Under the pieces are notes generated by a model that saw only the letters and a list, made by a program, of their open reading frames with translations, was not told the origin of the DNA and did no database searches. Positions 2,181 to 62,871 of a DNA stretch of 64,000 nucleotides are shown here, one piece after another. A program made the position numbers and the translations under genes. Position 1 is the stretch's first letter; the number at the start of each line of letters is the position of its first letter. Source of the stretch: Spirochaetota bacterium (GTDB lineage: Bacteria > Spirochaetota > JAHITG01 > JAFGFC01); assembly GCA_016931325.1 (NCBI GenBank), contig JAFGFC010000071.1, positions 11,379 to 75,378 on the forward strand. Reading direction: 5' to 3'.

Positions 2181-5100
2181 CTATTTATGTTTCCGGCGGC
2201 TTCTGGTCTTTCGCTTAATGCGTGTCGGTCTCCTGATCCCCCTCTTCCCGAACACAAAAACACAGTTACGGCCTGATTCCTTGGCCTTGTATAGACTCTC
2301 ATCCGCTCGCTCGACAAACTCCAATCTGTTCTCCCCTTCCCCTAATTGCGCCACACCAATACTCAATGTCACATTTAACTCTTCAACCCTTTTCCCCACC
2401 CGGTAGCTCATCTTCAACCCTTCGGCCTCTTTACATAACTTGCCTGCCAGGTTTTCCGCTCCCTCCAGGTCTGTTTCCGGCATAATTACCACAAATTCAT
2501 CCCCTCCATACCGGGCCGCTATATCGCTTTTCCTTACATTCTCCTGGATCAGATCCGTCACCTCGATCAATACCAGATCTCCTGCCTGATGCCCGTAATC
2601 ATCATTGAACCTTTTAAAATGATCAATGTCGATGATCATGAGGCTCAATGCCTTGCCATACCTTAAGGCCTCATCAACGCTTTTTATCAGATAATTGTCA
2701 AAGAAAATCCGGTTGTAAAGTCCAGTCAGCCCGTCCGTGATCGCCCGCTGGTAAAGCCTTGCGTTCTCTATCGAGACTCCGGCCTGACCTGAGATAAGAT
2801 CAAGAACCATCAAATCCTCCTGGCTGAATAGCCCGGTCACCAGACGATTATCCAGATAGATCACACCCAGCATATTTCCACGCGCCATGATCGGCGCACA
2901 GAGAACGCTTTTTAGCCCGTACTTGACCACTGACGACTGCCCTTTCAGTACCGTGTCTGTACCCGCATCTTCCACAATAACCGGCTTTGTCTCTTTTTCC
3001 ACCTTCTCTATTATGCTCTGGCTGGAGATAAATGCTTCTCCCTTCAGCTGCCCCTTCTCCACATTCCTGACCACCCTGATTTCAAGCTCTTTCTTCTTCC
3101 CCCTCTCATCAGGATATAACAACAGTATGCCCCGCTCCGCTCCCACCAGTTCCATGGTCTTGTCCATGATCTTTTCCAACAGCTCGTCCAGGTTGAGTAT
3201 GGATGACAGATATCGGCTCGTGCCCAATACCGTGGTCATCCTCCGCTCCACCTTGAGCCGGTCCTGCGGGCTGACCTCCTCGGTTGCCTCTTTCTCTTCT
3301 TTGAGTCCCAGGGCCTGAGAGCATTCTTTGATATATTTTTTAGCTCCTATGGTTTTGAAAACAGTTAATGCTGTTTCCCGGTTTTTCATGGCTTCTTCTT
3401 TTTTCCCCATTATATCTAAAAAATTGCTGTATTCGTAATAACTTTTAGCCATTTCATATTGACGATATGTATTTTTTAAATGTTTTATACTTTTTTTAAA
3501 ACAATTTTCCGCTTTTGTCTTCTTCTTAATTAAAGCGTAGTATTTACCACATACTCTCCATGTAACACCGTAATGGGCTGGCCAGGCTTTTGTATGCTTG
3601 TGAGATTCTTTACAAATTTTTTTTATCTGTTTCATGTCTCTTTTTAACAAGATCTTATTTTTTGTCCTGGTATCTTCATTATAATATCTCATGATATAGG
3701 AATCAGCCAAATAAGGATACAGGTATACAATATAATCTTTAATAAAATTATTATTAAGATACAGCTCTTTAGCTCTTTCCAATAATTTTATTGCTTCCTG
3801 ATATTTACCCTCTTCATATTTTAAATATCCGTGTACAACGCTGGAAGAACAATATATAAACCAAACTTTGTTTTTTTTACTGACACTCAAAGCCTCTCTT
3901 CCTACTTTGTTCGCTATATCAAAATTTCCCATTTCTATATTAGCTAAAGATATATTGGCCAGTGCTGAACTTTCACCATATACATCTTTTAATCTTCTAC
4001 TGATTTCCAGGTATTGGGTTAAATAATTAACCCCTTTGGCATAATCAGACATTAATCTGTATAAAAGACCAAAACCCTGTATTATCATCCCTAATTCCCA
4101 CATATCCCCCATTCTTTCAAATTTTTCCTGTGCCAGAGTGAAAACCTCAATAGCTTTTGGATATTCTGCCTTCCAGCTATAGCCATATCCCATAAACTGG
4201 AGTGATTGAGCTAATCCCCATTCATCATTCAGTTCTTTCCTTAAAGCTATAGCTTTTTTATGATATTTTATGGATAATTTAAAAATAGGTATAGCCATTA
4301 ATAACGCAGCATATCCTCCAAAAGATATGCCTAATTCCTTTGATTTTCCTATCCTCGATTCTGATATATTTAACATCCTTAATACATTGCAGATAAATTT
4401 ACTAATATCACTTAAAATATACATCCAATTTAACGGGATATTGATCCAGACTATTTCTTTATCTTCTTCTTTGATATTTTTAATTCCCTTGCGTACAAAA
4501 ATAAATGGGAAAAGATTATGCAAAAGATGTGTAATAATTTCTTTTGTCAAAGAAATTATGATTTCTATTTTCTTTCGCGGAATTTTTTCTCCAATTAATA
4601 ATAATCCATTCGCTAAATTGTCCTCACATTTTTCCCAGTCCCCTTTTTTAAAATAAGCCGTTCCTATTTTCCGGTAAATACGGGCTTTTTCAACAGGTTT
4701 TTTCTTTAAATGCAAAAGTTCCCGACATAGATCTATCGCTTCATCATTCCTGCCAATCGTTAGATATACCGCTGATAAACCCTCTTTGGCTTGAATCCAC
4801 TCTTCTTTACCTTTCTTCCCTTTCTTTTCTAACAAGTCTATCCCTATCTGATAATATCTGATCGCATCTTCATTGGCATAGTTTACTTTCGCCTTTTCAG
4901 CTGCCGGGATGACATATTCCAAAGACTTTCGTTTATCTCCTCCTTCTGTATAATGATGTGCCAGCTCAAAGACCACACTCTCAATGTTTTTCTTATTTAA
5001 TTCTTCGATTGCTTTTGCTATTTTTAAATGAAGAGCCTGTCTTCTCTTCTTGCCGATCTTCTGATAAAAAGCATCCCGGATCTTGTCATGCACAAAGATC

Positions 5101-7103
5101 TTCTTCCCCCGTTCCAGACTTTCCTGGATCAGCTGCATGGATATGGCGTCATCCACTATCCTGACAACATCCTCCTTTGGCATCTCTACCAGAGGATACA
5201 GCAGATCGATCTCAAATTCCCTGCCGATAACAGATGACAGATAAAGTATTTCACTCTGCTTCTGGGTGAGATCCTCGATCCGTTTTAAAATAATATCGAT
5301 CATATTGGCTGATACCGGAATCCTGGCTATCCGTTTCCAGTCCGCATCCCAGTACCCTTCCTTCCATATCAGGCCTTTCTCTTCTACCAGTTCTCTCAAA
5401 ATACTTATGGCAAAAAAGGGATTTCCCCTACTTTTTCTCATCACATACCGGGTCAACTCATGGGCTTTGCTCTCCCGTTCACCCAAAAGTGAAGCCACCA
5501 TCCTGTTCATCCTGTCATAAGTAAATGATTTGATAATAATCTCTTCTAAAGCATAACCTCCTGTTTCAGCCTCATTTTTTACCCTGGTTAAACTGTGCTT
5601 TTCATCCACCTCATTATCACGAAAAGCTCCTATGATCAACAGGTTTGAATTTTTTACCTTCCCGGCGATCTCCTCAAGGAGCCTCAAGGTCCCTTCATCC
5701 GCCCATTGCAGATCATCGATATAGATCAGGCAGGCTGTAGTTTCCCCAACCAGATGACAGAAAAAATTGGATGCCACCATTAAAAATCTCTGGTTCTCAC
5801 GTTCCGGATCAAGTTTGACCAGCTGAGGTACTTCGCCCAATACTTCAGACATGTTCCCATTAAGCCGTATCACGATCTCTCCCAGATCCCCCAGAATATT
5901 TTTTATCCTCTTTATCTCTGTTTCTTTTTCTTTCTTCCCTAACCTTTCAAGATGTTTAATATACCCGTTAATCGTGTCCCGGAAAGGCTGATAGGGTGTC
6001 TTGTTCTCCTGGTCCAGACAACGGCCGCCAATGAAAAGCCCGTTCTCTTCATAACAGTAACTCCTCATCTCCTCCAAAAGACGGCTCTTGCCCACTCCCG
6101 GTTCTCCTCCTATCAAACAGACACTCCCCTGACCATCCCTGGCTTTATTAAAAAGCTTTTGCATCCTGGATACTTCTGCTTCCCTGCCCACAAGCCTGGT
6201 CTGATAACTGATCTTTACCTTCTGGTCCTTCTCCCCTATGATAAAACCCCTTTCCCCTTTCTGGAATCTTTGTACATCATATAAAAGCCCCTTGGCGCTC
6301 TGATACCGAAGCTCCGGTTCCTTGAACAACAGTTTCATCACCATCTCTTCCAGTTCACTCGATATCCCGGTCCGCACCTTGCCCGGCTTGGTCGGCATTA
6401 CAGCCACCTGCTGATGAAGCATCTTGCTGGTCTCTTTGGCCCTGAAAGGCAGTTCCCCGGTCAGCAATTGATAAAAGATAATACCCAGTGAATACAGATC
6501 ACTCCGTTCATCTATTCTTTTATTCACGATCCCCGTGGCTTCAGGCGACATGTATCCGAAGGTCCCGACCACTTCTTCCTCCCCTTTCAAATGACCCAGT
6601 TCCATGATAAAGGCCACGCCAAAATCTAAAAGTTTTGTCACATTTCCTTTGCCCTTTTTCACCAGCATAATATTGCCCGGTTTCAGGTCCCTGTGAAGTA
6701 TCCCCCGGCCATGTACATAATCCAGTGCCTCTGTCAGTTGTTTGATAATATCGATCGTTTCTTTTGTTCCAAAACTTTTCTGCTGCTCCAATTTCTCGGA
6801 CAGGCTCTGTCCGGGAATAGATTCCATGACAATGTAAGGAATATTTTTATATTCTCCGCTGGAATAGATCTTTACGATATTGGTATGGCTTAACTGGCTG
6901 ACCGCTTCGATCTCTCTTTTGAACCGGATCACATCTTCAATATAGGATGAGGTCACTCCCTGTTTGAGGAATTTTATGGCCACATCATGCTTTTTTTTTC
7001 TGTCCCTGGCCCGAAAAACAACACTCATTCCCCCTTCGCCGATCTGTTCAAGTATCTGGTATCTCGTATCAATTGTTGCGTTCTTTTTAAATTTCAGTTC
7101 CAT
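2181..7103 (-). CDS. Multidomain signalling protein: N-terminal Ser/Thr protein kinase, AAA/STAND-like NTPase, multiple TPR repeats, GAF domain, C-terminal GGDEF diguanylate cyclase, then a Lys/Arg-rich tail
   Basis: Kinase motifs GEGGMSVVFRA...AIK and HRDLKPGNIML...DFG. Walker A GGEPGVGKSRLLEE. A long TPR-like helical region. GAF-like ELLEKIMDKTMELVGAERGILLL. GGDEF motif RYGGDEFVVIM with an RKSD (RxxD) I-site 5 residues upstream. The tail reads RRPTRIKRKTRSRRKHK. Confidence 0.8.
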   Translation of the reverse strand: MELKFKKNATIDTRYQILEQIGEGGMSVVFRARDRKKKHDVAIKFLKQGVTSSYIEDVIRFKREIEAVSQLSHTNIVKIYSSGEYKNIPYIVMESIPGQSLSEKLEQQKSFGTKETIDIIKQLTEALDYVHGRGILHRDLKPGNIMLVKKGKGNVTKLLDFGVAFIMELGHLKGEEEVVGTFGYMSPEATGIVNKRIDERSDLYSLGIIFYQLLTGELPFRAKETSKMLHQQVAVMPTKPGKVRTGISSELEEMVMKLLFKEPELRYQSAKGLLYDVQRFQKGERGFIIGEKDQKVKISYQTRLVGREAEVSRMQKLFNKARDGQGSVCLIGGEPGVGKSRLLEEMRSYCYEENGLFIGGRCLDQENKTPYQPFRDTINGYIKHLERLGKKEKETEIKRIKNILGDLGEIVIRLNGNMSEVLGEVPQLVKLDPERENQRFLMVASNFFCHLVGETTACLIYIDDLQWADEGTLRLLEEIAGKVKNSNLLIIGAFRDNEVDEKHSLTRVKNEAETGGYALEEIIIKSFTYDRMNRMVASLLGERESKAHELTRYVMRKSRGNPFFAISILRELVEEKGLIWKEGYWDADWKRIARIPVSANMIDIILKRIEDLTQKQSEILYLSSVIGREFEIDLLYPLVEMPKEDVVRIVDDAISMQLIQESLERGKKIFVHDKIRDAFYQKIGKKRRQALHLKIAKAIEELNKKNIESVVFELAHHYTEGGDKRKSLEYVIPAAEKAKVNYANEDAIRYYQIGIDLLEKKGKKGKEEWIQAKEGLSAVYLTIGRNDEAIDLCRELLHLKKKPVEKARIYRKIGTAYFKKGDWEKCEDNLANGLLLIGEKIPRKKIEIIISLTKEIITHLLHNLFPFIFVRKGIKNIKEEDKEIVWINIPLNWMYILSDISKFICNVLRMLNISESRIGKSKELGISFGGYAALLMAIPIFKLSIKYHKKAIALRKELNDEWGLAQSLQFMGYGYSWKAEYPKAIEVFTLAQEKFERMGDMWELGMIIQGFGLLYRLMSDYAKGVNYLTQYLEISRRLKDVYGESSALANISLANIEMGNFDIANKVGREALSVSKKNKVWFIYCSSSVVHGYLKYEEGKYQEAIKLLERAKELYLNNNFIKDYIVYLYPYLADSYIMRYYNEDTRTKNKILLKRDMKQIKKICKESHKHTKAWPAHYGVTWRVCGKYYALIKKKTKAENCFKKSIKHLKNTYRQYEMAKSYYEYSNFLDIMGKKEEAMKNRETALTVFKTIGAKKYIKECSQALGLKEEKEATEEVSPQDRLKVERRMTTVLGTSRYLSSILNLDELLEKIMDKTMELVGAERGILLLYPDERGKKKELEIRVVRNVEKGQLKGEAFISSQSIIEKVEKETKPVIVEDAGTDTVLKGQSSVVKYGLKSVLCAPIMARGNMLGVIYLDNRLVTGLFSQEDLMVLDLISGQAGVSIENARLYQRAITDGLTGLYNRIFFDNYLIKSVDEALRYGKALSLMIIDIDHFKRFNDDYGHQAGDLVLIEVTDLIQENVRKSDIAARYGGDEFVVIMPETDLEGAENLAGKLCKEAEGLKMSYRVGKRVEELNVTLSIGVAQLGEGENRLEFVERADESLYKAKESGRNCVFVFGKRGIRRPTRIKRKTRSRRKHK

Positions 7104-22242: not shown

Positions 22243-22494
22243 TTAATTGGTACGTTCTCTTGCTTCATTAACGCGCAAGGGTCGGCCTGAGAAATCCGAT
22301 CCATTCAATGCTTCAATGGCTTTTATAGCATCATCATCTTCCATCTCAACAAAGCCAAATCCGCGGGATCTTCCTGTGTGACGATCCGTAACAATTTTAG
22401 CTGACAGTACAGTACCGTGTTTTTCGAACAATTCTTTCAGATCATCTTCAGATGTCTGGAACGGAATGTTCCCTACGTAAATTTTCTTCGCCAT
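22243..22494 (-). CDS. RRM-type RNA-binding protein (glycine-rich Rbp-like)
   Basis: RNP2 KIYVGNIPF and RNP1 RGFGFVEM. Confidence 0.8.
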   Translation of the reverse strand: MAKKIYVGNIPFQTSEDDLKELFEKHGTVLSAKIVTDRHTGRSRGFGFVEMEDDDAIKAIEALNGSDFSGRPLRVNEARERTN

Positions 22495-37372: not shown

Positions 37373-37522
37373 CGGATCGTTACTTGAATGTATTTTAAAT
37401 GAATAGTTAAATAAACAATCCGTCAGTTCGAAGTTCTAGGTTCGAAGTTCAAATCTTCTGCCTTGCAATTCGACACTCTGGAATTTCTAAGACCCCTAGA
37501 AATTGCCAAGCAATTCCAAGGG
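37371..37522 (+). repeat. Structured intergenic element, copy 3: long hairpin, four GTTCNAN heptads, nested GGAATT/AATTCC hairpins
   Basis: gacggatcgtt...aacaatccgtc is an 11-bp stem with a 32-nt loop. Heptads agttcga agttcta ggttcga agttcaa (37425-37452). Outer stem ccttgcaatt/aattccaagg encloses ggaatttcta/tagaaattgcc. Confidence 0.5.
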
Positions 37523-37545
37523 ATGCGTCAGGATCAATAAAACTT

Positions 37546-39123: not shown

Positions 39124-39140
39124 ATGATTTGATAAAAAAA

Positions 39141-39168
39141 GGCAGCCCTTTGGGCTGCCTTTTTTTAT
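39141..39168. terminator. Bidirectional intrinsic terminator after dcd
   Basis: aaaaaaa ggcagccc ttt gggctgcc tttttttat: a GC-rich 8-bp stem with a U-tract. Confidence 0.75.
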
Positions 39169-40088
39169 TTCACTTCCGGTTTCAATTCCACGTTGGGTGG
39201 ACTGATGTCAACGGTAACAGCCTGTCTTATTTCATCTGACGTATTTCCTACATTATCAATCGCTTTGGCCACGATCGTATGATCTCCTTCCGTCTCAAAA
39301 GAGATAGGAGATTCATAAACGACAAATTCACCTCCGTCAAGGGAAACAAGTATCCTGGCAATACCTGATTCAGTATCTGAAGCCTCGATAGTGTACTGGA
39401 AGCTCTTGGGGGCATAATTACGATTATTCTTCTGATAAAAGCTTCCACTCGGTATTATCTTTACCATGGGTTTTACATTATCAACAAAAAATGATAATGT
39501 TTTTTCCACAGCTGTATTTCCTACAAAATCTGTCGCTTTAAATTTAATTGTCTCATCCCCGGCTTTCCCGATAGTGATAGGGGTCTTATAAGGTTGGTAT
39601 TTAGAGGCTCCCAGGGTGTATTCAATGCTTTTCACGCCTGAAAGCGCATCCGAGGCCACAATTGAAAATTTGGCTGCCAGGGGAGCGTACAATTTATTAT
39701 TGGCTGAATAGAGCTTGAAATCCGGAGACAGAGAAACATCAGGGGGAGTATTATCAATAACGACAGGATAGGCTATTGTGGTTGACTGGTTGCCGACATT
39801 ATCTATCGAATAATAATAGATCGTATGGGGCCCTTCTTCCGGAATGGAAAGGGGTTTTTGATATTCAATAAAGTCTCCCTTGTCTACTTTGAACAATATT
39901 GACTTGACTTCCGAGATCGTATCTTTACTGGCTATGGAAAATTTAGCCGACGAGGTGGCGTAATCCACTTTCCCATCATTATAAATGATTGAATCGACCG
40001 GTGGAGCCGGCTGACCCTTTTGCGCCAGTATTGACTGACTGAAAGCAAGCAATAAAATAAACATAAAAAGTATTATTTTACTTTTCAT
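39165..40088 (-). CDS. Secreted protein with three tandem Ig-like (Big_3/OmpL47-type) repeats
   Basis: Signal peptide. Three ~90-aa repeats, each ending ...DN(T/V)(P/K)P(D/M/N)V... and each containing S(G/E)(V/I)(K/A)S(I/L). Confidence 0.5.
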   Translation of the reverse strand: MKSKIILFMFILLLAFSQSILAQKGQPAPPVDSIIYNDGKVDYATSSAKFSIASKDTISEVKSILFKVDKGDFIEYQKPLSIPEEGPHTIYYYSIDNVGNQSTTIAYPVVIDNTPPDVSLSPDFKLYSANNKLYAPLAAKFSIVASDALSGVKSIEYTLGASKYQPYKTPITIGKAGDETIKFKATDFVGNTAVEKTLSFFVDNVKPMVKIIPSGSFYQKNNRNYAPKSFQYTIEASDTESGIARILVSLDGGEFVVYESPISFETEGDHTIVAKAIDNVGNTSDEIRQAVTVDISPPNVELKPEVK

Positions 40089-40141: not shown

Positions 40142-41224
40142 TTATTCATCTATGAACTTTTTTTTGAGATCCTCATCTTCAGACAATTCCTCAACGATCT
40201 TTTTGATCTCCTGCTCTCTGGATTTATCCATAACCAGAAGAGCATTTTTACTTTTCACTATAATAAGATTATTAACGCCCAGGGTAACCACCAGGTCACC
40301 GTCACTTACAATAATAGAATTTTTTGTATCCTGTCCTTTCCATAATGATTTTATAATATTTCGATCAGGATCAACACCTGTCACTCTTTCCAAAGCGGTC
40401 CAGGAACCAACATCATCCCAGGTGAATCTGGATTTCAAACACAGGACATTATCCGCATGTTCCATGACCCCATAGTCAATGGATATCCTTGGCAGAGCGT
40501 GGAAAACGTCATGAACAGCCCTGTCTTCTTCGTCCGTGTCCATAACATCCTGAATCTGCATTAATCCCTCAAAAAGTTCCTTCATATGCTTTTCGATCGC
40601 TTCCATAATGGAAGGTATAGTCCATATGAACATACCGCTGTTCCATACAAAATTTCCTTTTTCATTATACATTTTAGCGGTTGCATAATCAGGTTTCTCT
40701 TTAAAGCTTTTAACCTCATAAGCAGGGGTATCATAAGTATCATTGATGATCTCTCCCAGTTCTATATGACCATACCCTGTCGAGATCCTTGTCGGCTGTA
40801 TCCCAAAGGTGATAAGACACCCTGTCTCTTTGGCGATCCTGGAGGCGTTGAAAAGGTCCTTTTGGAAGAGATCCTTCTCTTTTATTGTATGATCAGCCGG
40901 GAGAACAGCCACCACAGACCCGGGAGATCTTTTGTTCACCATGGTAACAGCGAAACCTATGGCTGCGGCCGTATCTTTTGGCATGGGTTCAATGATAAAA
41001 TTTTCATCGGGAAAATCTTTTATAATCGCTTTTATGGGAGGGACAAGATCTTTTCTTGTGGAGATAAAAATATCTTCTGTTTTTACCAGCCCTTCCAGCC
41101 TTTCGATGGTCTCTTCCAGCATGGTCTTTGAACTGACAATAGGTAAAAGCTGTTTTGGCTTTGTAAGACGGCTAAAAGGCCAGAATCTCTCCCCCTTTCC
41201 GCCGGCCAGAATGATAATCTTCAT
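40142..41224 (-). CDS. Mannose-1-phosphate guanylyltransferase-like sugar nucleotidyltransferase
   Basis: MKIIILAGGKGERFWPFSRLTKPKQLL is the G-x-G-T-R-hmm NTP-transferase N-terminus. 360 aa with no cupin domain. Confidence 0.7.
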   Translation of the reverse strand: MKIIILAGGKGERFWPFSRLTKPKQLLPIVSSKTMLEETIERLEGLVKTEDIFISTRKDLVPPIKAIIKDFPDENFIIEPMPKDTAAAIGFAVTMVNKRSPGSVVAVLPADHTIKEKDLFQKDLFNASRIAKETGCLITFGIQPTRISTGYGHIELGEIINDTYDTPAYEVKSFKEKPDYATAKMYNEKGNFVWNSGMFIWTIPSIMEAIEKHMKELFEGLMQIQDVMDTDEEDRAVHDVFHALPRISIDYGVMEHADNVLCLKSRFTWDDVGSWTALERVTGVDPDRNIIKSLWKGQDTKNSIIVSDGDLVVTLGVNNLIIVKSKNALLVMDKSREQEIKKIVEELSEDEDLKKKFIDE

Positions 41225-56241: not shown

Positions 56242-57459
56242 ATGTTACCACTTTATATCGGGATAGGGGTTGTCATTGTTGGTTTTATCGGGTTTATCAT
56301 AGAAAGGTTCATAAGAAGAGAAAAACGATGGAAGATCCAAATCAAATTAATGGCCCAGAGACAGGATTACGCGGGAGCCATCGATCTGACCAAACGCCTG
56401 ATCAATCTCAGGCCCAATAAAGTGGACTATTATCTTCTTCTGGCTGATCTGTATGAAAGGAATAAAATGAAGGCTTCCGCTCTTGAAGTCTATCAGAACA
56501 TGATCAAAAACAAGATATTTTCCAATAAATGCCGTGAACATAATATCAGAGAAAAGATCGCCATCATCAATATAGAAGACAAAAAGATCATTGAGGCTTT
56601 TAAAGAATTATACATTATCTTCCGGACCCATTCCCAATCATCCTATGCTCTGGCCCTCCTGGGCCGGATCTATGGCTCACAGATGAAATATGATAAAGCC
56701 AGGGACTATCTTACCAAGGCCATCACTCTGTCTCCTCATATAGCCGAATTTCACTATCAGATGGGTCTGCTATGGCTTGATACAGGAGACCTGACTCGTG
56801 CCATAGAAGAGCTGGAAAAATCCATGACCCAGGATCCCAACCATGTGAAAGCACAATATTTTCTGGCTCTCTGCTACCGCCAGAGAGGATTACAGGAAAA
56901 AGCGAAAACACTTTTTGAGAGACTGAATATAACCAATCTTAACAATCTTCCCAATAATATTACTCAGATCGGGATCATGGCCCAGAATATGCCAAAATTC
57001 AATATCGATGAAATAGCCAAAAGCCTGGATGAAGAATTAAGTGGTATGAAAAAAGACGGCCGGGTGAAAGTGAAGGATGTTGATGAACTCTTGGATTCCG
57101 GAATAGATGTATTTCATGAGACGGCTGTTTCTGTGATCCTGAAAATGGGGTATACAATAAAGGATGAGATAAGGAATCGCCTGATCGATCCCAATACGGA
57201 AATCGATTTTATTACCATCGCTAAAAAATACCAGGATGAACCACAGCCGCCTTTATGTTTCATCCAGTTTAACAAGGTCCGTTCGGAAGTCGGCACTATC
57301 CCTTTTGCCGATTTTATTTCAAAAATGAAAGATGCGCGGGCCAGGTCCGGAATATTCATCACCACGTCTTCTTTTTCAAGCCAGATCCATGAAAAGATCA
57401 CAAAGGAGAATTTAAGGATCACCCTGATCGACCGAACTAAACTCAACCGTTATCTTTAG
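56242..57459 (+). CDS. Membrane-anchored TPR-repeat protein with a C-terminal Mrr-like (PD-(D/E)xK) restriction-endonuclease domain
   Basis: N-terminal TM LPLYIGIGVVIVGFIGFII. About 6 TPR units. The C-terminus ...VILKMGYTIKDE...DPNTEIDFIT...CFIQFNKV...SGIFITTSSFSSQIHEKITKENLRITLIDRTKL matches the Mrr_cat pattern (GY, D..iD, vQcK, iTTs.Fs, LiDg..L). Confidence 0.55.
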   Translation: MLPLYIGIGVVIVGFIGFIIERFIRREKRWKIQIKLMAQRQDYAGAIDLTKRLINLRPNKVDYYLLLADLYERNKMKASALEVYQNMIKNKIFSNKCREHNIREKIAIINIEDKKIIEAFKELYIIFRTHSQSSYALALLGRIYGSQMKYDKARDYLTKAITLSPHIAEFHYQMGLLWLDTGDLTRAIEELEKSMTQDPNHVKAQYFLALCYRQRGLQEKAKTLFERLNITNLNNLPNNITQIGIMAQNMPKFNIDEIAKSLDEELSGMKKDGRVKVKDVDELLDSGIDVFHETAVSVILKMGYTIKDEIRNRLIDPNTEIDFITIAKKYQDEPQPPLCFIQFNKVRSEVGTIPFADFISKMKDARARSGIFITTSSFSSQIHEKITKENLRITLIDRTKLNRYL

Positions 57460-58610: not shown

Positions 58611-58661
58611 ATTACGAATTAAATAGCTTTGAGAAAGCAAGTCAACTCTTTTTAGATTCTC

Positions 58662-59058
58662 GTTCGAGGTTCGACGTGCGACGTCAACGCACAGGAAGTG
58701 CGTTGGGTCAAATCGGCCTGGAAGGCTGAGATTTGACCACGAAGTTCGATGAACAGGATGGTCATCGGATCGGCTCAGTTCCCCTGCAATTCATGGAATT
58801 GCGGGGATTAAATCCCGGAAATAGCCCTGCCATTTCAAGGGACGTAGCATTTCCAGGGTAAAGTCCTTGGAATTGCTACGCAATTCCTAAGGAGTCTTAA
58901 TCCTCGGAATTTCTCGGAGAAATTCCAGAGGGATGAATTGCAGGGGAGAGGATTCGACACTCCTACATCCTGCCCCTAGAAATTTTTTATCGAAAAATTT
59001 CAGGGGTATAGTCCCTGGAATTGTACTTTGGACAATTCCTAGGGATAGGTCGTCGAAC
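58662..59058 (+). repeat. Structured intergenic element, copy 1: GTTCGAN heptads, conserved hairpin module, then five tandem GGAATT/AATTCC-type hairpins, bounded by inverted CGTTCGACG-like ends
   Basis: Left end gttcgag gttcgac gtgcgac. Hairpins caacgcac-aggaa-gtgcgttg and cccctgcaatt-catgg-aattgcgggg. Further hairpins at 58868-58892, 58904-58924, 58975-59006 and 59015-59046. Right end ggtcgtcgaacg. The module is homologous to 62672..62818. Confidence 0.55.
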
Positions 59059-59115
59059 GTATTATTGCTTGACTTTGTTAAAGATTATACTATCTTGAAA
59101 AATCTTTAAATAGAG

Positions 59116-60225: not shown

Positions 60226-60794
60226 TTACGGAACAATCATTGTATCATCAAAAGTAATTGTTATATTGACAGTGTGACCCTGGTTAATATTTATTGGATC
60301 ACCATTATTAGCCACTTGATTATTATACGCCTCAAGAGGATCTCCTGAATCAGGGCCATTGGACATTCCTGTGCCGTTCCCATCAAAGAAAGCACCGGCA
60401 TAACATGGATTAAAAAGAATATTGGTAAACGTAAATGTATAACCATTATTTGATGTGGAGGCATCCGCATTAAGATTATTGCATTGCGCCTCAATGACAT
60501 TAGAAGCATTTGAGGTCAGATCATCAGTATTACATACTCTTACTCCAATCATGTGAGTTCCATTAACAACTCCCCGTTGGAATTACCCGTATAATTGATA
60601 GTAATTTTTAGTGTTCTTTTTGTTGATGCAGGCGGTTCTTCAGGCGGGGTAGGGGTTAAAAGATCATCTTTTTCGTCACTGCAGGCGACCGAAAATAGAA
60701 AAATAGCAACAAGGAACAGATTGAATAAAATATATAATGTTCGGTTAATCATAAAAATTTCCCTCCTTGTATTAAAATTGGTTATTATAGACAT
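60226..60794 (-). pseudogene. Lipoprotein gene split into two overlapping ORFs by a frameshift within a G4 (minus-strand) homopolymer
   Basis: ORF 60549..60794 encodes a lipoprotein signal (LFSVAC) plus 50 aa. ORF 60226..60552 continues in the -1 frame with no signal peptide of its own. The frames can only be joined within 60556..60585, where the plus-strand cccc tract (60572-60575) lies. One extra G would give ...TGNSNGGVVNGTHMIGVRV... Confidence 0.45.
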
Positions 60795-60858
60795 AAATTA
60801 CTCTGTAAAAGTTGTCAAGCGCTATATTATGATTTCTTTTTTAAATGTTGCCTTTTAC

Positions 60859-60887
60859 TTGACGCCCCCTATTAAAAATATTATATT
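60859..60887 (+). promoter_or_regulatory. Sigma70-like promoter for the tRNA-Ser operon
   Basis: TTGACG - 17 nt - TATATT, ending 7 nt before the tRNA 5' end. Confidence 0.45.
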
Positions 60888-60893
60888 ACACGC

Positions 60894-60979
60894 GGAGAGA
60901 TGGCCGAGCGGACGAAGGCGGCGGTCTTGAAAACCGCTGATGGTTATGCCATCCGGGGGTTCGAATCCCTCTCTCTCCG
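60894..60979 (+). tRNA. tRNA-Ser (anticodon UGA), class II with long variable arm
   Basis: Acceptor GGAGAGA/TCTCTCC. Anticodon stem GCGGT/ACCGC with loop CTTGAAA. Variable arm GATGG-TTAT-GCCATC. T-loop GGTTCGAATCC. No encoded CCA. Confidence 0.85.
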
Positions 60980-60984
60980 TATGG

Positions 60985-61073
60985 GGAGAGGTGCTGGAGT
61001 GGACGATCAGGGCTGCCTGCTAAGCAGTTGTAGGGGTTAAACTCTACCGAGGGTTCGAATCCCTCCCTCTCCG
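60985..61073 (+). tRNA. tRNA-Ser (anticodon GCU), class II
   Basis: Acceptor GGAGAGG/CCTCTCC. Anticodon loop CTGCTAA. Long variable arm GTAG...CTAC. T-loop GGTTCGAATCC. Confidence 0.85.
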
Positions 61074-61089
61074 CATATAATGACTGTAG

Positions 61090-61107
61090 CCGAGCCTTCA
61101 GGCTCGG
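61090..61107. repeat. REP-like palindrome CCGAGCC-TTCA-GGCTCGG, copy 3
   Basis: Identical to the copy at 46259..46276, including the flanking TAG...AAA context. Confidence 0.5.
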
Positions 61108-61124
61108 AAAGTAAGGTAAATATT

Positions 61125-61388
61125 ATGAAACAGGAAATTAAAAATATCAGTGTAGAGTCAGTTTTCAGGATCATTTTTTTTATTACCCTGGTCATCACCG
61201 GATTTTTCAGCCTGCTCAATATTATTGTATCATTATTTACAGGACAATTATTAATGGCCCTGTTGATCTTTGCTGTCGGAGCCCCTTTGATCGCTCTTAT
61301 GGAAGGCGCCCTGGCCGCTCTGTTTATTTTTATTTATAACGCTTTTGCTAAAAAATTCGGTGGATTCATCATTGACCTTGGAAATTAA
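61125..61388 (+). CDS. Small hypothetical membrane protein (two TM helices); start trimmed to the ATG after the palindrome
   Basis: MKQEIKNISVESVFRIIFFITLVITGFFSLLNIIVSLFTGQLLMALLIFAVGAPLIALMEG... The tracked upstream extension would read through the REP-like hairpin. Confidence 0.4.
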   Translation: MKQEIKNISVESVFRIIFFITLVITGFFSLLNIIVSLFTGQLLMALLIFAVGAPLIALMEGALAALFIFIYNAFAKKFGGFIIDLGN

Positions 61389-61390
61389 TT

Positions 61391-61464
61391 GTGCCCATAG
61401 TTCAATTGGATAGAACGCTGGATTGCGGTTCCAGTGGTTAGAGGTTCAAGTCCTCTTGGGCACG
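61391..61464 (+). tRNA. tRNA-Arg (anticodon reads GCG)
   Basis: 74 nt. Acceptor GTGCCCA/TGGGCAC. D-stem GTTC/GAAC. Anticodon stem CTGGA/TCCAG with loop TTGCGGT. T-loop GGTTCAAGTCC. No G3:U70, so not Ala. Confidence 0.75.
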
Positions 61465-61467
61465 CAT

Positions 61468-62667
61468 ATGATCTACAAGTTACAATCTTTAGCCGGTCTT
61501 GTGCTTATTCTGGGACTGGCTTTCCTTCTCTCTACTAATAAAAAATCAATAAAACTGCGTGTTGTTGTATGGGGATTCGCTCTTCAGCTGATCCTGGCCT
61601 TAATTATTCTCAGAACCGATATCGGTTTTTTAATATTTGAGGGGGCCAAAAAAGCGGTGGGTGCCGTTATTAATTACAGCGACAAAGGGGCTGCTTTTGT
61701 TTTTGGAAATCTTGTCTATGATCAGGCTATAGGAGCGGTGATCGCTTTCAGGGTGCTTCCTATCATTATTTTTGTCTCGGCCCTGATGGGTATCCTTTCT
61801 TTTTTTGGTATTATCCAGTTCTTTGTAAAATTGATGGCCCGGCTTATGCAGAGAACCATGAAAATATCCGGAGCGGAATCATTAGGGGCCGCTATGCTTA
61901 TCTTCATGGGCATTGAAAGCAGCACAGGTCTGAAAGAGTATATTAGAAAAATGACCAGATCCGAAATATTTGTTTATATGAGCGCCTTCATGAGCACGAT
62001 CGCCACAAGTGTTATGGCTACTTATGTCAGCTTTGGGGCTCAGGCCGGTCATTTACTGGCAGCCTCTATTATGAGCGCTCCGGCAGCCGTAGCCATCGCC
62101 AAGATCATGATACCTGAAACAGAAAAACCGGACACTCTGGGAAGCAGTAAATTAAAATTAGAAACCAAGCCGTCTAACATCATTGAATCAATGGCTGATG
62201 GCGCTTCAACCGGTGCACACCTGGCTATTCAGATCGGGGCCATGCTTTTAGCGTTTATGGGTATCATCTATCTGATCAATGGCCTGTTAAATTATGCGGG
62301 ATTATCCATGGATAAGATCTTCAGCTATATTTTCTATCCTTTTGCTCTGGCTTTAGGTGTACCCGTAAAAGACGCGTCAGTCGTAGCCTCATTGTTAGGT
62401 ACAAAGACCGTATTTAATGAATTTTTGGCCTATATGAAGCTTCAGCCCCTGATCCAGTCACACGCCATTTCCGCCCGATCTATTGTTATCTCAACTTATG
62501 CCTTATGTGGTTTTGCCAATTTTGGAAGTATTGCGATTCTCATAGGGGGGCTGGCCGGTATCGCCCCGGAGAAAAAAAACATGATTGCTTCCCTGGGGAT
62601 CAAATCTCTGATTGCCGGTACTCTGGCTTCTTTCATGACAGCTATCATTGCGGGGTGGTTGATTTAA
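61468..62667 (+). CDS. nupC: Concentrative nucleoside transporter, NupC family; start trimmed to the ATG just after the tRNA
   Basis: MIYKLQSLAGLVLILGLAFLLS...LRVVVWGFALQLILALIIL is a typical CNT N-terminus. Polytopic, about 400 aa. Confidence 0.75.
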   Translation: MIYKLQSLAGLVLILGLAFLLSTNKKSIKLRVVVWGFALQLILALIILRTDIGFLIFEGAKKAVGAVINYSDKGAAFVFGNLVYDQAIGAVIAFRVLPIIIFVSALMGILSFFGIIQFFVKLMARLMQRTMKISGAESLGAAMLIFMGIESSTGLKEYIRKMTRSEIFVYMSAFMSTIATSVMATYVSFGAQAGHLLAASIMSAPAAVAIAKIMIPETEKPDTLGSSKLKLETKPSNIIESMADGASTGAHLAIQIGAMLLAFMGIIYLINGLLNYAGLSMDKIFSYIFYPFALALGVPVKDASVVASLLGTKTVFNEFLAYMKLQPLIQSHAISARSIVISTYALCGFANFGSIAILIGGLAGIAPEKKNMIASLGIKSLIAGTLASFMTAIIAGWLI

Positions 62668-62671
62668 TATG

Positions 62672-62818
62672 GTTCGACGCGCGACGTTCGAGGTTCGAAG
62701 TTCGACACACAGGAAGTGTGTCGGGTCGAATCCCTCCCCTGCAATTTGGAAAATTGCGGGGATCAAATCCCGGAAATGCTTCGCATTTCACAGGACATGG
62801 ATGGTTGGGATTCGACCA
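62672..62818 (+). repeat. Structured intergenic element, copy 2 (compact): five GTTCGAN heptads followed by a multi-stem module
   Basis: Heptads gttcgac gcgcgac gttcgag gttcgaa gttcgac. Hairpin cgacacac-aggaa-gtgtgtcg. Outer stem gggtcgaatccc/gggattcgacc encloses cccctgcaatt-tggaa-aattgcgggg and gaaatgc-ttc-gcatttc. Confidence 0.55.
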
Positions 62819-62871
62819 CTTTGTTTAATGATATAAGCAATTAACTATCTTTTATCTTATGGATAATAAAA

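Follow-up and report, generated by a model that had tools for sequence, protein, structure and literature searches.

The hairpins arrayed between dinB and its divergent neighbour in this Spirochaetota bacterium amount to 1.5 copies of a non-coding palindromic repeat that is scattered through this and other genomes; it is probably (we put it at about 60%) a small mobile element of the general kind of MITEs, REPINs and BIMEs, and not a control region of dinB. The repeat recurs within the genome, has dispersed to unrelated housekeeping spacers, is polymorphic in its presence, decays, and has kept its hairpins through compensatory changes. Three sites, with about 15 hairpins of the family, occur in the window, that is, the whole 64-kb stretch of DNA that was analysed. 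The original prediction had favoured a MITE-like element over a plain promoter region, and this much is borne out: the array is a non-coding repeat with copies elsewhere in the window and in other genomes, it is missing at related dinB loci, and one member of the family is present in one genome and absent from its relatives at an orthologous site. The recombination or partition-type site offered in the same breath is not supported, as no integrase, ParB or Xer context was found and the loop lengths are too variable for a fixed double-stranded operator.

The genome is compact, and the spacer that carries the array, at 475 nt, is the second-largest non-coding gap in the window. The largest apparent gap, of 660 nt, holds an 83-aa ORF (22243-22494, minus strand) that fell below the 90-aa ORF filter and that, judged by its RRM motifs (IYVGNI, RGFGFVEM), is a predicted gene for a small RNA-binding protein. 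On one side of the array, dinB lies on the minus strand with its ATG near 58612; its product matches 'DNA polymerase IV [Spirochaetota bacterium]' at 100% identity, and the next relatives show 56-61% amino acid identity. On the other side, a plus-strand gene from 59116 specifies a product with one or more SurA_N-like domains. A promoter-like site for this gene, TTGACT-16-TATCTT (59069-59096, plus strand; a consensus match only), lies 3′ of the array, and a TTGACT, read by eye, occurs on the minus strand at 58642-58637, just ahead of dinB, so that the array sits between two divergent promoter-like sites. Since the first of these is downstream of the array, the array is probably outside the 5′ UTR of the SurA_N-like gene. 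The leader of dinB appears to be near zero in length, the TTGACT being about 25 nt 5′ of the ATG with no Shine-Dalgarno sequence visible by eye (58612-58642, minus strand). The only ORF inside the array (58 aa, 58933-59109) overlaps the hairpins. Tail to tail with dinB, and overlapping it by 4 nt, is a gene whose product combines TPR repeats with an Mrr_cat restriction-endonuclease domain at its C terminus (56242-57459); the same pairing is found in one relative (L003) and probably in another (L001), which indicates that this side of dinB is conserved and the upstream side is not.

A position between two divergent promoter-like sites (the -35 of dinB having been read by eye), together with a repeated core, TTCC..GGAA, that resembles a half-site, would suit a locus-specific array of double-stranded binding sites for a protein: it might serve dinB or the SurA-like gene as an operator or enhancer, or bind a nucleoid protein or gyrase as some BIMEs do. 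We regard this as the least probable of the readings weighed here. The four-hairpin unit from which the array is built is also found in unrelated spacers, including some inside operons; the loops range from 3 to 9 nt, so the spacing of half-sites is not kept; and no regulator gene adjoins the array among the window ORFs scanned. The only LexA-like sequence seen by eye is a loose TTTG-N6-CAAG near 58630. The element is also missing upstream of dinB in five relatives (L001-L005, 56-61% identity), but the upstream synteny differs there, and for this reason the comparison provides no empty site for the locus in the window. The spacer upstream of dinB in the relative with 61% identity (L001, 5380-5510) has short hairpins of its own, ACACACCTTTAGGTGTGT and ACAGACCTAAAGGTCTGT, which are unrelated to the present family, and that lineage may carry a different small palindromic repeat.

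Five hairpins had been described between dinB and the next gene, and they lie where they were predicted to be, four of them strong and the third weak. When each was folded alone as DNA and compared with shuffled sequences, hairpins 1 (58864-58893, z -6.7), 2 (58902-58932, z -4.1), 4 (58972-59007, z -6.5) and 5 (59012-59045, z -4.8), all given on the plus strand, reached energies of -10.7 kcal/mol (hairpin 1) to -11.7 kcal/mol. Hairpin 3 (GGGG..AGGAT / ATCCT..CCCC, 58942-58977, plus strand) gave -6.5 kcal/mol and a z of -1.6, with 16 of 200 shuffles folding equally well, and it represents filler between two copies of the repeat. The description of the stems as near-perfect and 10-13 bp long was too generous: the hairpins are sound, but their stems are of 12-14 bp and each is interrupted by one extrahelical base or a small internal loop. 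The common core is confirmed, CCCTGGAATTG (with at most two mismatches) occurring 10 times in 58782-59043; across the whole window there are 44 such matches against 25 expected. Folded as a whole, the spacer (58640-59080) reaches -195 kcal/mol (z -9.2) on the plus strand and -181 kcal/mol (z -11.8) on the minus strand, and none of 100 shuffles was as low. Two other hairpins in the window, both very strong, are unrelated to the GGAATT family. One, a GC-rich stem of 17 bp flanked by A7 and T7 (39131-39169), lies between convergent genes and looks like a bidirectional terminator; the other is a 23-bp stem (2064-2116) between two minus-strand ORFs (417-1985 and 2181-7103), downstream of an ORF of 1640 aa.

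The array is a mosaic, consisting of a genome-specific left module followed by one full and one partial copy of a four-hairpin unit of about 140 nt (all positions in this paragraph are on the plus strand). At the left edge, TRF finds a tandem heptamer, CGTTCGA x 3.4 (GTTCGAG GTTCGAC GTGCGAC, 58661-58684), and this is followed by two hairpins (58685-58738), P1, which is CAACGCAC-AGGAA-GTGCGTTG, and P2, GGTCAAATC...GATTTGACC. The full copy (58779-58938), in which four hairpins follow one another in the order Ha-Hb-Hc-Hd, is matched over the full length of the covariance model R1 (79.3 bits, E 5e-21). Ha lies at 58781-58806, the next is an Hb-like hairpin with a duplicated 3′ arm (58814-58858), and Hc and Hd are hairpins 1 and 2 above. 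The sequence ATGAATTGCAGGGGA (58933-58947) is a 15-nt perfect complement of 58780-58794 and is used in the minimum-free-energy fold; it could be either the closing helix of this copy or the orphan 3′ arm of a Ha unit. The partial copy (58967-59046; R1 match at 58967-59073, 51.4 bits, E 4e-13) has Hb and Hc, which are hairpins 4 and 5, and is without Ha and Hd. A short tail, CGTCGAAC (59051-59058), ends the composite.

The hairpin units are 28-35 nt long and all lie in spacers. Each combines a CCCY/RGGG lower stem with an upper stem of the GGAATT/AATTCC type, 7-10 bp long; a single extrahelical base or a 1x2 internal loop separates the two stems, and the loop at the tip measures 3-9 nt. The extra base is on the 5′ arm in Ha and Hb and on the 3′ arm in Hc and Hd, so that the two pairs are in opposed orientations, the unit is pseudo-two-fold symmetric, and its outer arms, CCCYNGRAAT / ATTYCNRGGG, act as terminal inverted repeats. 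Since one core is common to all units, many alternative pairings can be drawn, the perfect 15-bp helix between 58780-58794 and 58933-47 being one example.

This anatomy bears directly on the form of element originally proposed, a single MITE of about 400 bp (58662-59058) with inverted ends of 8-9 bp, CGTTCGACG/CGTCGAACG, which we consider very unlikely. Inverted ends do exist, as 8 nt of perfect complementarity between GTTCGACG (58669-58676) and the tail at 59051-59058, rather than the roughly 9 bp first described; the whole region also folds as one closed structure, and GTTCGAC-like motifs are found at the edges of other family members. By themselves, however, the inverted ends are unconvincing, and the left one falls within the tandem heptamer, where there is no unique terminus. 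R1 separates two copies of the unit inside the supposed element. A blastn search within the window returned partial copies (62668-62820 and 37426-37525) but no second 400-bp unit, with only sub-modules recurring, and no clear repeat that could be a target-site duplication flanks positions 58662 and 59058. The region is better described as the mosaic set out above than as one element bounded by CGTTCGACG-like ends.

Of the two further sites in the window, copy B (62668-62820, plus strand) lies directly 3′ of a nupC-like nucleoside-transporter gene. It matches 58662-58843 by blastn, with 75% identity to 58740-58843, and comprises five heptamers, P1, two family hairpins and a closing stem, GGGTCGAATCCC/GGGATTCGACC; it folds with a z of -5.1 and is recognized by R1 at 62720-62829 (36.5 bits, E 7e-9). 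Here P1 recurs as CGACACAC-AGGAA-GTGTGTCG (62703-62723), both arms being changed relative to CAACGCAC/GTGCGTTG. Copy C (37426-37525, plus strand), found by blastn through its match to the hairpins, lies between the gene for a class A penicillin-binding protein (PBP1A) and a DUF2148 gene; its four heptamers are accompanied by degenerate hairpins of the family, with an R1 match at 37493-37522 (20.1 bits, E 3e-4). CGTCAG flanks copy C on both sides (37421-26 and 37526-31), and copy B has a flanking repeat, TTTAAT, that is offset by 3-4 nt. All three window copies are headed by three to five tandem GTTCGAN heptamers on the same strand and the same side (58661-58684, 62672-62706 and 37426-37453), and the Omnitrophota copies described below have a single GTTCGAC after Hd rather than such a head. 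The heptamer head may serve as a target or as a cleavage motif, or it may be left over from an adjacent copy. Between the array and copy B there is a cluster of tRNA-Ser(tga), tRNA-Ser(gct) and tRNA-Arg(gcg) genes (60893-61465), and two mechanically called ORFs that overlap it (60595-60930 and the start of 61423-62667) are over-called.

With a strict hairpin pattern, real loci were recovered from species-representative genomes (three) and from JGI metagenomes (three), and the ordered set Ha-Hb-Hc-Hd, of about 140 nt, is present in all of them. The phylum labels used here, Spirochaetota and Omnitrophota, are those given by the submitters of the metagenome-assembled genomes (MAGs). Two loci (L006 and L009) are on two contigs of one Omnitrophota MAG; one (L007) is in another 'Spirochaetes bacterium' MAG, and the same sequence was recovered from a metagenome (L011); the last two (L012 and L013) come from a single metagenome, and the ribosomal protein S3 encoded with L012 is closest to 'Candidatus Omnitrophica' proteins (76-80% identity). 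The model R1 was built only from the Omnitrophota-type copies, L006, L009, L012 and L013, and contains no window sequence. It matches the L007 copy with 72.6 bits and also recovers a site of two hairpins in L011 (4740-4845). Its reverse-strand matches are weaker (41-52 bits) and arise because the unit is pseudo-symmetric. R1 was also run on related Omnitrophota contigs totalling 75 kb, where it found no further copy, so their copy density is low.

The surroundings of these copies are varied. The Spirochaetes copy (L007/L011) is in the gyrB-gyrA spacer, antisense to its neighbours; the two-hairpin site of L011 is likewise antisense to the genes beside it. In the Omnitrophota MAG (L006/L009), one copy is in a spacer between a nitroreductase and a SIMPL gene and another (L009, 768-1372) lies precisely in the spacer that separates smpB from ssrA, the tmRNA gene (Rfam tmRNA, 203 bits), in the same orientation as both. 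Contigs L016 and L017 end before they reach the smpB-ssrA site. The L012 copy is in the rplN-rplX spacer, on the sense strand inside a ribosomal-protein operon. Orientation relative to neighbouring genes is mixed overall, the model and the flanking genes running in the same direction at five of about eight sites. The two Omnitrophota copies share about 92% identity across 197 bp, and their ends form the inverted repeat ACTTCCTC/GAGGAAGT; both are preceded by a TTATAY box resembling a -10 element and have a T-rich tail. Other candidates from the searches were discarded, L008 and L010 being chance single hairpins inside coding DNA and the viral L014 and L015 being single hairpins without arrays. 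The module pattern had no match in viral contigs, and blastn against plasmids and phages found none. In the literature, the core sequences match only unrelated primers, and no Omnitrophota intergenic hairpin repeat was found.

Conservation of structure is pronounced. In an alignment of the best six copies, pairing accounts for 98.2% of cells and both partners have changed in 18 of 47 pairs, a result reached by none of 500 shuffles, and in slid controls the paired fraction falls to 22-65%; the alignment was fitted to R1, so this count leans towards structure. Hc is almost invariant (11 of its 13 pairs never vary). Such features, along with the Ha-Hb-Hc-Hd order kept across genomes with two phylum labels and the closing helices that join the two ends, could also be expected if the four-hairpin unit were primarily a functional structured RNA that has spread under selection for its function, for example a multi-copy small RNA gene, or a module acting in cis as an mRNA stabiliser, a docking platform for an RNase or other protein, or a protein sponge. 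The agreement in orientation at five sites, among them the sense-strand copy in the ribosomal-protein operon, and the TTATAY box and T-rich tail of the Omnitrophota copies point the same way. It is the conserved order, the covariation and the invariant Hc that keep this reading in consideration, although we judge it unlikely. Whichever strand is read, Watson-Crick pairs make up at least 93% of the stems, G.U pairs number 0-9 and folding energies are similar, neither strand being consistently better; this is the look of palindromes maintained at the DNA level and argues mildly against an RNA made from one strand. Shortening and mosaicism are frequent among the copies, the two-hairpin L011 site and the gyrB-gyrA copy run antisense to their neighbours, and in close relatives of L012 the element was lost from, or never present at, the rplN-rplX site, with nothing in its place.

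Nor does a known RNA family account for the element. None of the 4227 models of Rfam 15 matched, whether at gathering threshold on the window, at E<=10 on the region or at E<=1 on three related loci; the best scores in the region (mir-205, 15 bits; PyrC leader, 18 bits) are far below threshold, and the only matches in the window and the three loci are tRNAs and a tmRNA. A 96-nt tRNA-Arg(tcg) called by ARAGORN at 40972-41067, inside an NTP_transferase ORF (40142-41224, minus strand), is not among the Rfam matches at gathering score and is probably a false positive.

One line of evidence that a mobile repeat is involved comes from the rplN-rplX spacer, which is about 157 nt long in L012 against 38 nt in L018, 24 nt in the P0130 contigs and 17 nt in L020, these being relatives with 84-90% S3 identity to L012 (the P0130 spacer was taken from gene coordinates only). 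The element is present in L012 and absent from L018, L020 and the P0130 contigs, and a remnant is seen in L019. In L018 the empty site reads TAA followed directly by AAAATTTAAAATTAAAAATG; in L012 the filled site reads TAG, AAAACTA, the element of 139 nt and then AAAATTTAAAATTAAAAATG. The flanks of the L012 insert, AAAACTA and AAAATTT, form an imperfect 7-nt repeat with five of seven positions identical. The rplN-rplX spacer of L019 contains AAAATTA-CCCTTGGAAATAGGG-AAAATAA (5797-5825), in which CCCTTGGAAATAGGG is a mini-palindrome of 15 nt; this looks like what is left of the two outer arms, the footprint of a deletion or excision of the L012 element. Candidate target duplications differ in length, from the 5/7 repeat at L012 to the 6-nt CGTCAG at copy C and the offset TTTAAT at copy B. 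Shortened or mosaic forms include the partial copy beside dinB, which has lost Ha and Hd, and copy B and the L011 site (4740-4845), each with two hairpins. No transposase, integrase or Y1_Tnp domain was found in the 40 ORFs of the window or in 10 ORFs from L006, L009 and L011, several of which adjoin copies, and no IS was present in any sequence examined.

REP, BIME and REPIN sequences are repetitive extragenic palindromes mobilised by RAYT tyrosine transposases (PMC2817692, PMC3116915, PMC3733652), REPs being defined as imperfect extragenic palindromes of 20-40 bp with an unpaired GTAG or CGTC tag and usually more than 100 copies per genome (PMC3733652). The present family resembles them in its bulged, imperfect palindromes of 28-35 nt, its extragenic location, the stem variants that are complementary on both arms, the mosaic clusters of units in opposed orientations, the occurrence both in operons and between convergent or divergent genes, and the ability of either strand to fold. 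It differs at the foot of the unit, where the conserved unpaired tag (GTAG or CGTC) is lacking; the feet are AGTCC, AATCC, GGTCC or GGCCG, with the T and C paired, a single GTAG occurs at 58844-58847, and CGTC/GACG is confined to the heptamer head and tail. Unlike those of REPs, the stems are AT-rich and not GC-rich, and what is repeated is not a single REP or doublet but four distinct hairpins in a fixed order. No RAYT was found among the 40 window ORFs or the 10 ORFs of L006, L009 and L011, and the possible target duplications would be a further difference from REPINs.

There are also similarities to bacterial MITEs and modular repeats, such as Correia/NEMIS, ERIC, BOX, RUP and RPE (reviewed in PMC3184786). 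Like these, the element is non-coding, 100-200 bp long, intergenic and bounded by terminal inverted repeats, occurs in several copies, shows presence/absence polymorphism, would fold strongly when transcribed, and is modular, the number of modules varying as it does in BOX A-B(n)-C. Its sequence resembles none of the families named, no parent IS with matching ends is known, and, unlike in those families, an almost identical Hc is found in copies labelled as belonging to two different phyla.

There is a resemblance, too, to certain multi-copy or tandem-hairpin motifs in Rfam whose function is unknown, some possibly being ssDNA (TD-1 and TD-2 of Treponema denticola, ARRPOF and STAXI, for example), but no Rfam 15 model matches the window region or the related loci. 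Several other systems were considered and rejected. Integron attC sites have core sites R″/R′ of the form RYYYAAC / GTTRRRY; the heptamers here are GTTCGAN, with C at position 4, the hairpins are 6-9 nt apart with no cassettes between them, and no integrase was found in the ORFs scanned. CRISPR or type III toxin-antitoxin repeats are not a match, as TRF finds only the heptamer repeat, the units vary in sequence and orientation, and the neighbours are dinB and the SurA_N-like gene rather than a toxin or cas gene. A bidirectional terminator is rejected on account of the divergent flanking genes, and an oriC or parS on account of the lack of DnaA or ParB context and of a skew switch.

If the array is indeed a mobile repeat, it would be moved, now or until recently, by a transposase supplied in trans from another locus. 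One candidate is a DDE enzyme, binding the terminal arms and duplicating a short stretch of target; another is an enzyme of the single-strand HUH/RAYT type, for which the bulged hairpins would be the signal. The possible target duplications point to the former, the bulged hairpins and REPIN-like symmetry to the latter; to our knowledge, IS200/IS605 and REPIN elements make no target duplication. At the dinB/SurA-like locus the element would be a passenger parked between two divergent promoters, with at most incidental effects, for example from a cruciform or an RNA stem-loop, or by insulating the two promoters from each other. A more speculative suggestion, to which we give rather little weight, is that a dedicated partner, one that has so far escaped notice, recognises the four-hairpin module with its near-invariant Hc (TCCCTGGAATTG..CAATTCCTAGGGA), a hairpin common to MAGs of both phylum labels, Spirochaetota and Omnitrophota; the module would then be a new class of structured nucleic-acid element rather than one more MITE. 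Candidates for such a partner would be a hairpin-reading mobilisation enzyme unlike RAYT/IS200, or an RNA-binding protein that uses the module as a multi-site platform.

For the genome at hand, a false lead is removed, in that the array beside dinB is neither an SOS device nor a promoter device. More broadly, a previously uncatalogued repeat family has been defined, with a working covariance model, in poorly studied, uncultivated lineages, where it inserts even within a ribosomal-protein operon and between smpB and ssrA. Elements of this sort confound the prediction of non-coding RNAs and regulatory sites in MAGs and break assemblies, and they can mark horizontal exchange between phyla. Should it prove true that Hc has a dedicated protein partner, the family would offer a tractable entry to a new hairpin-recognition system.
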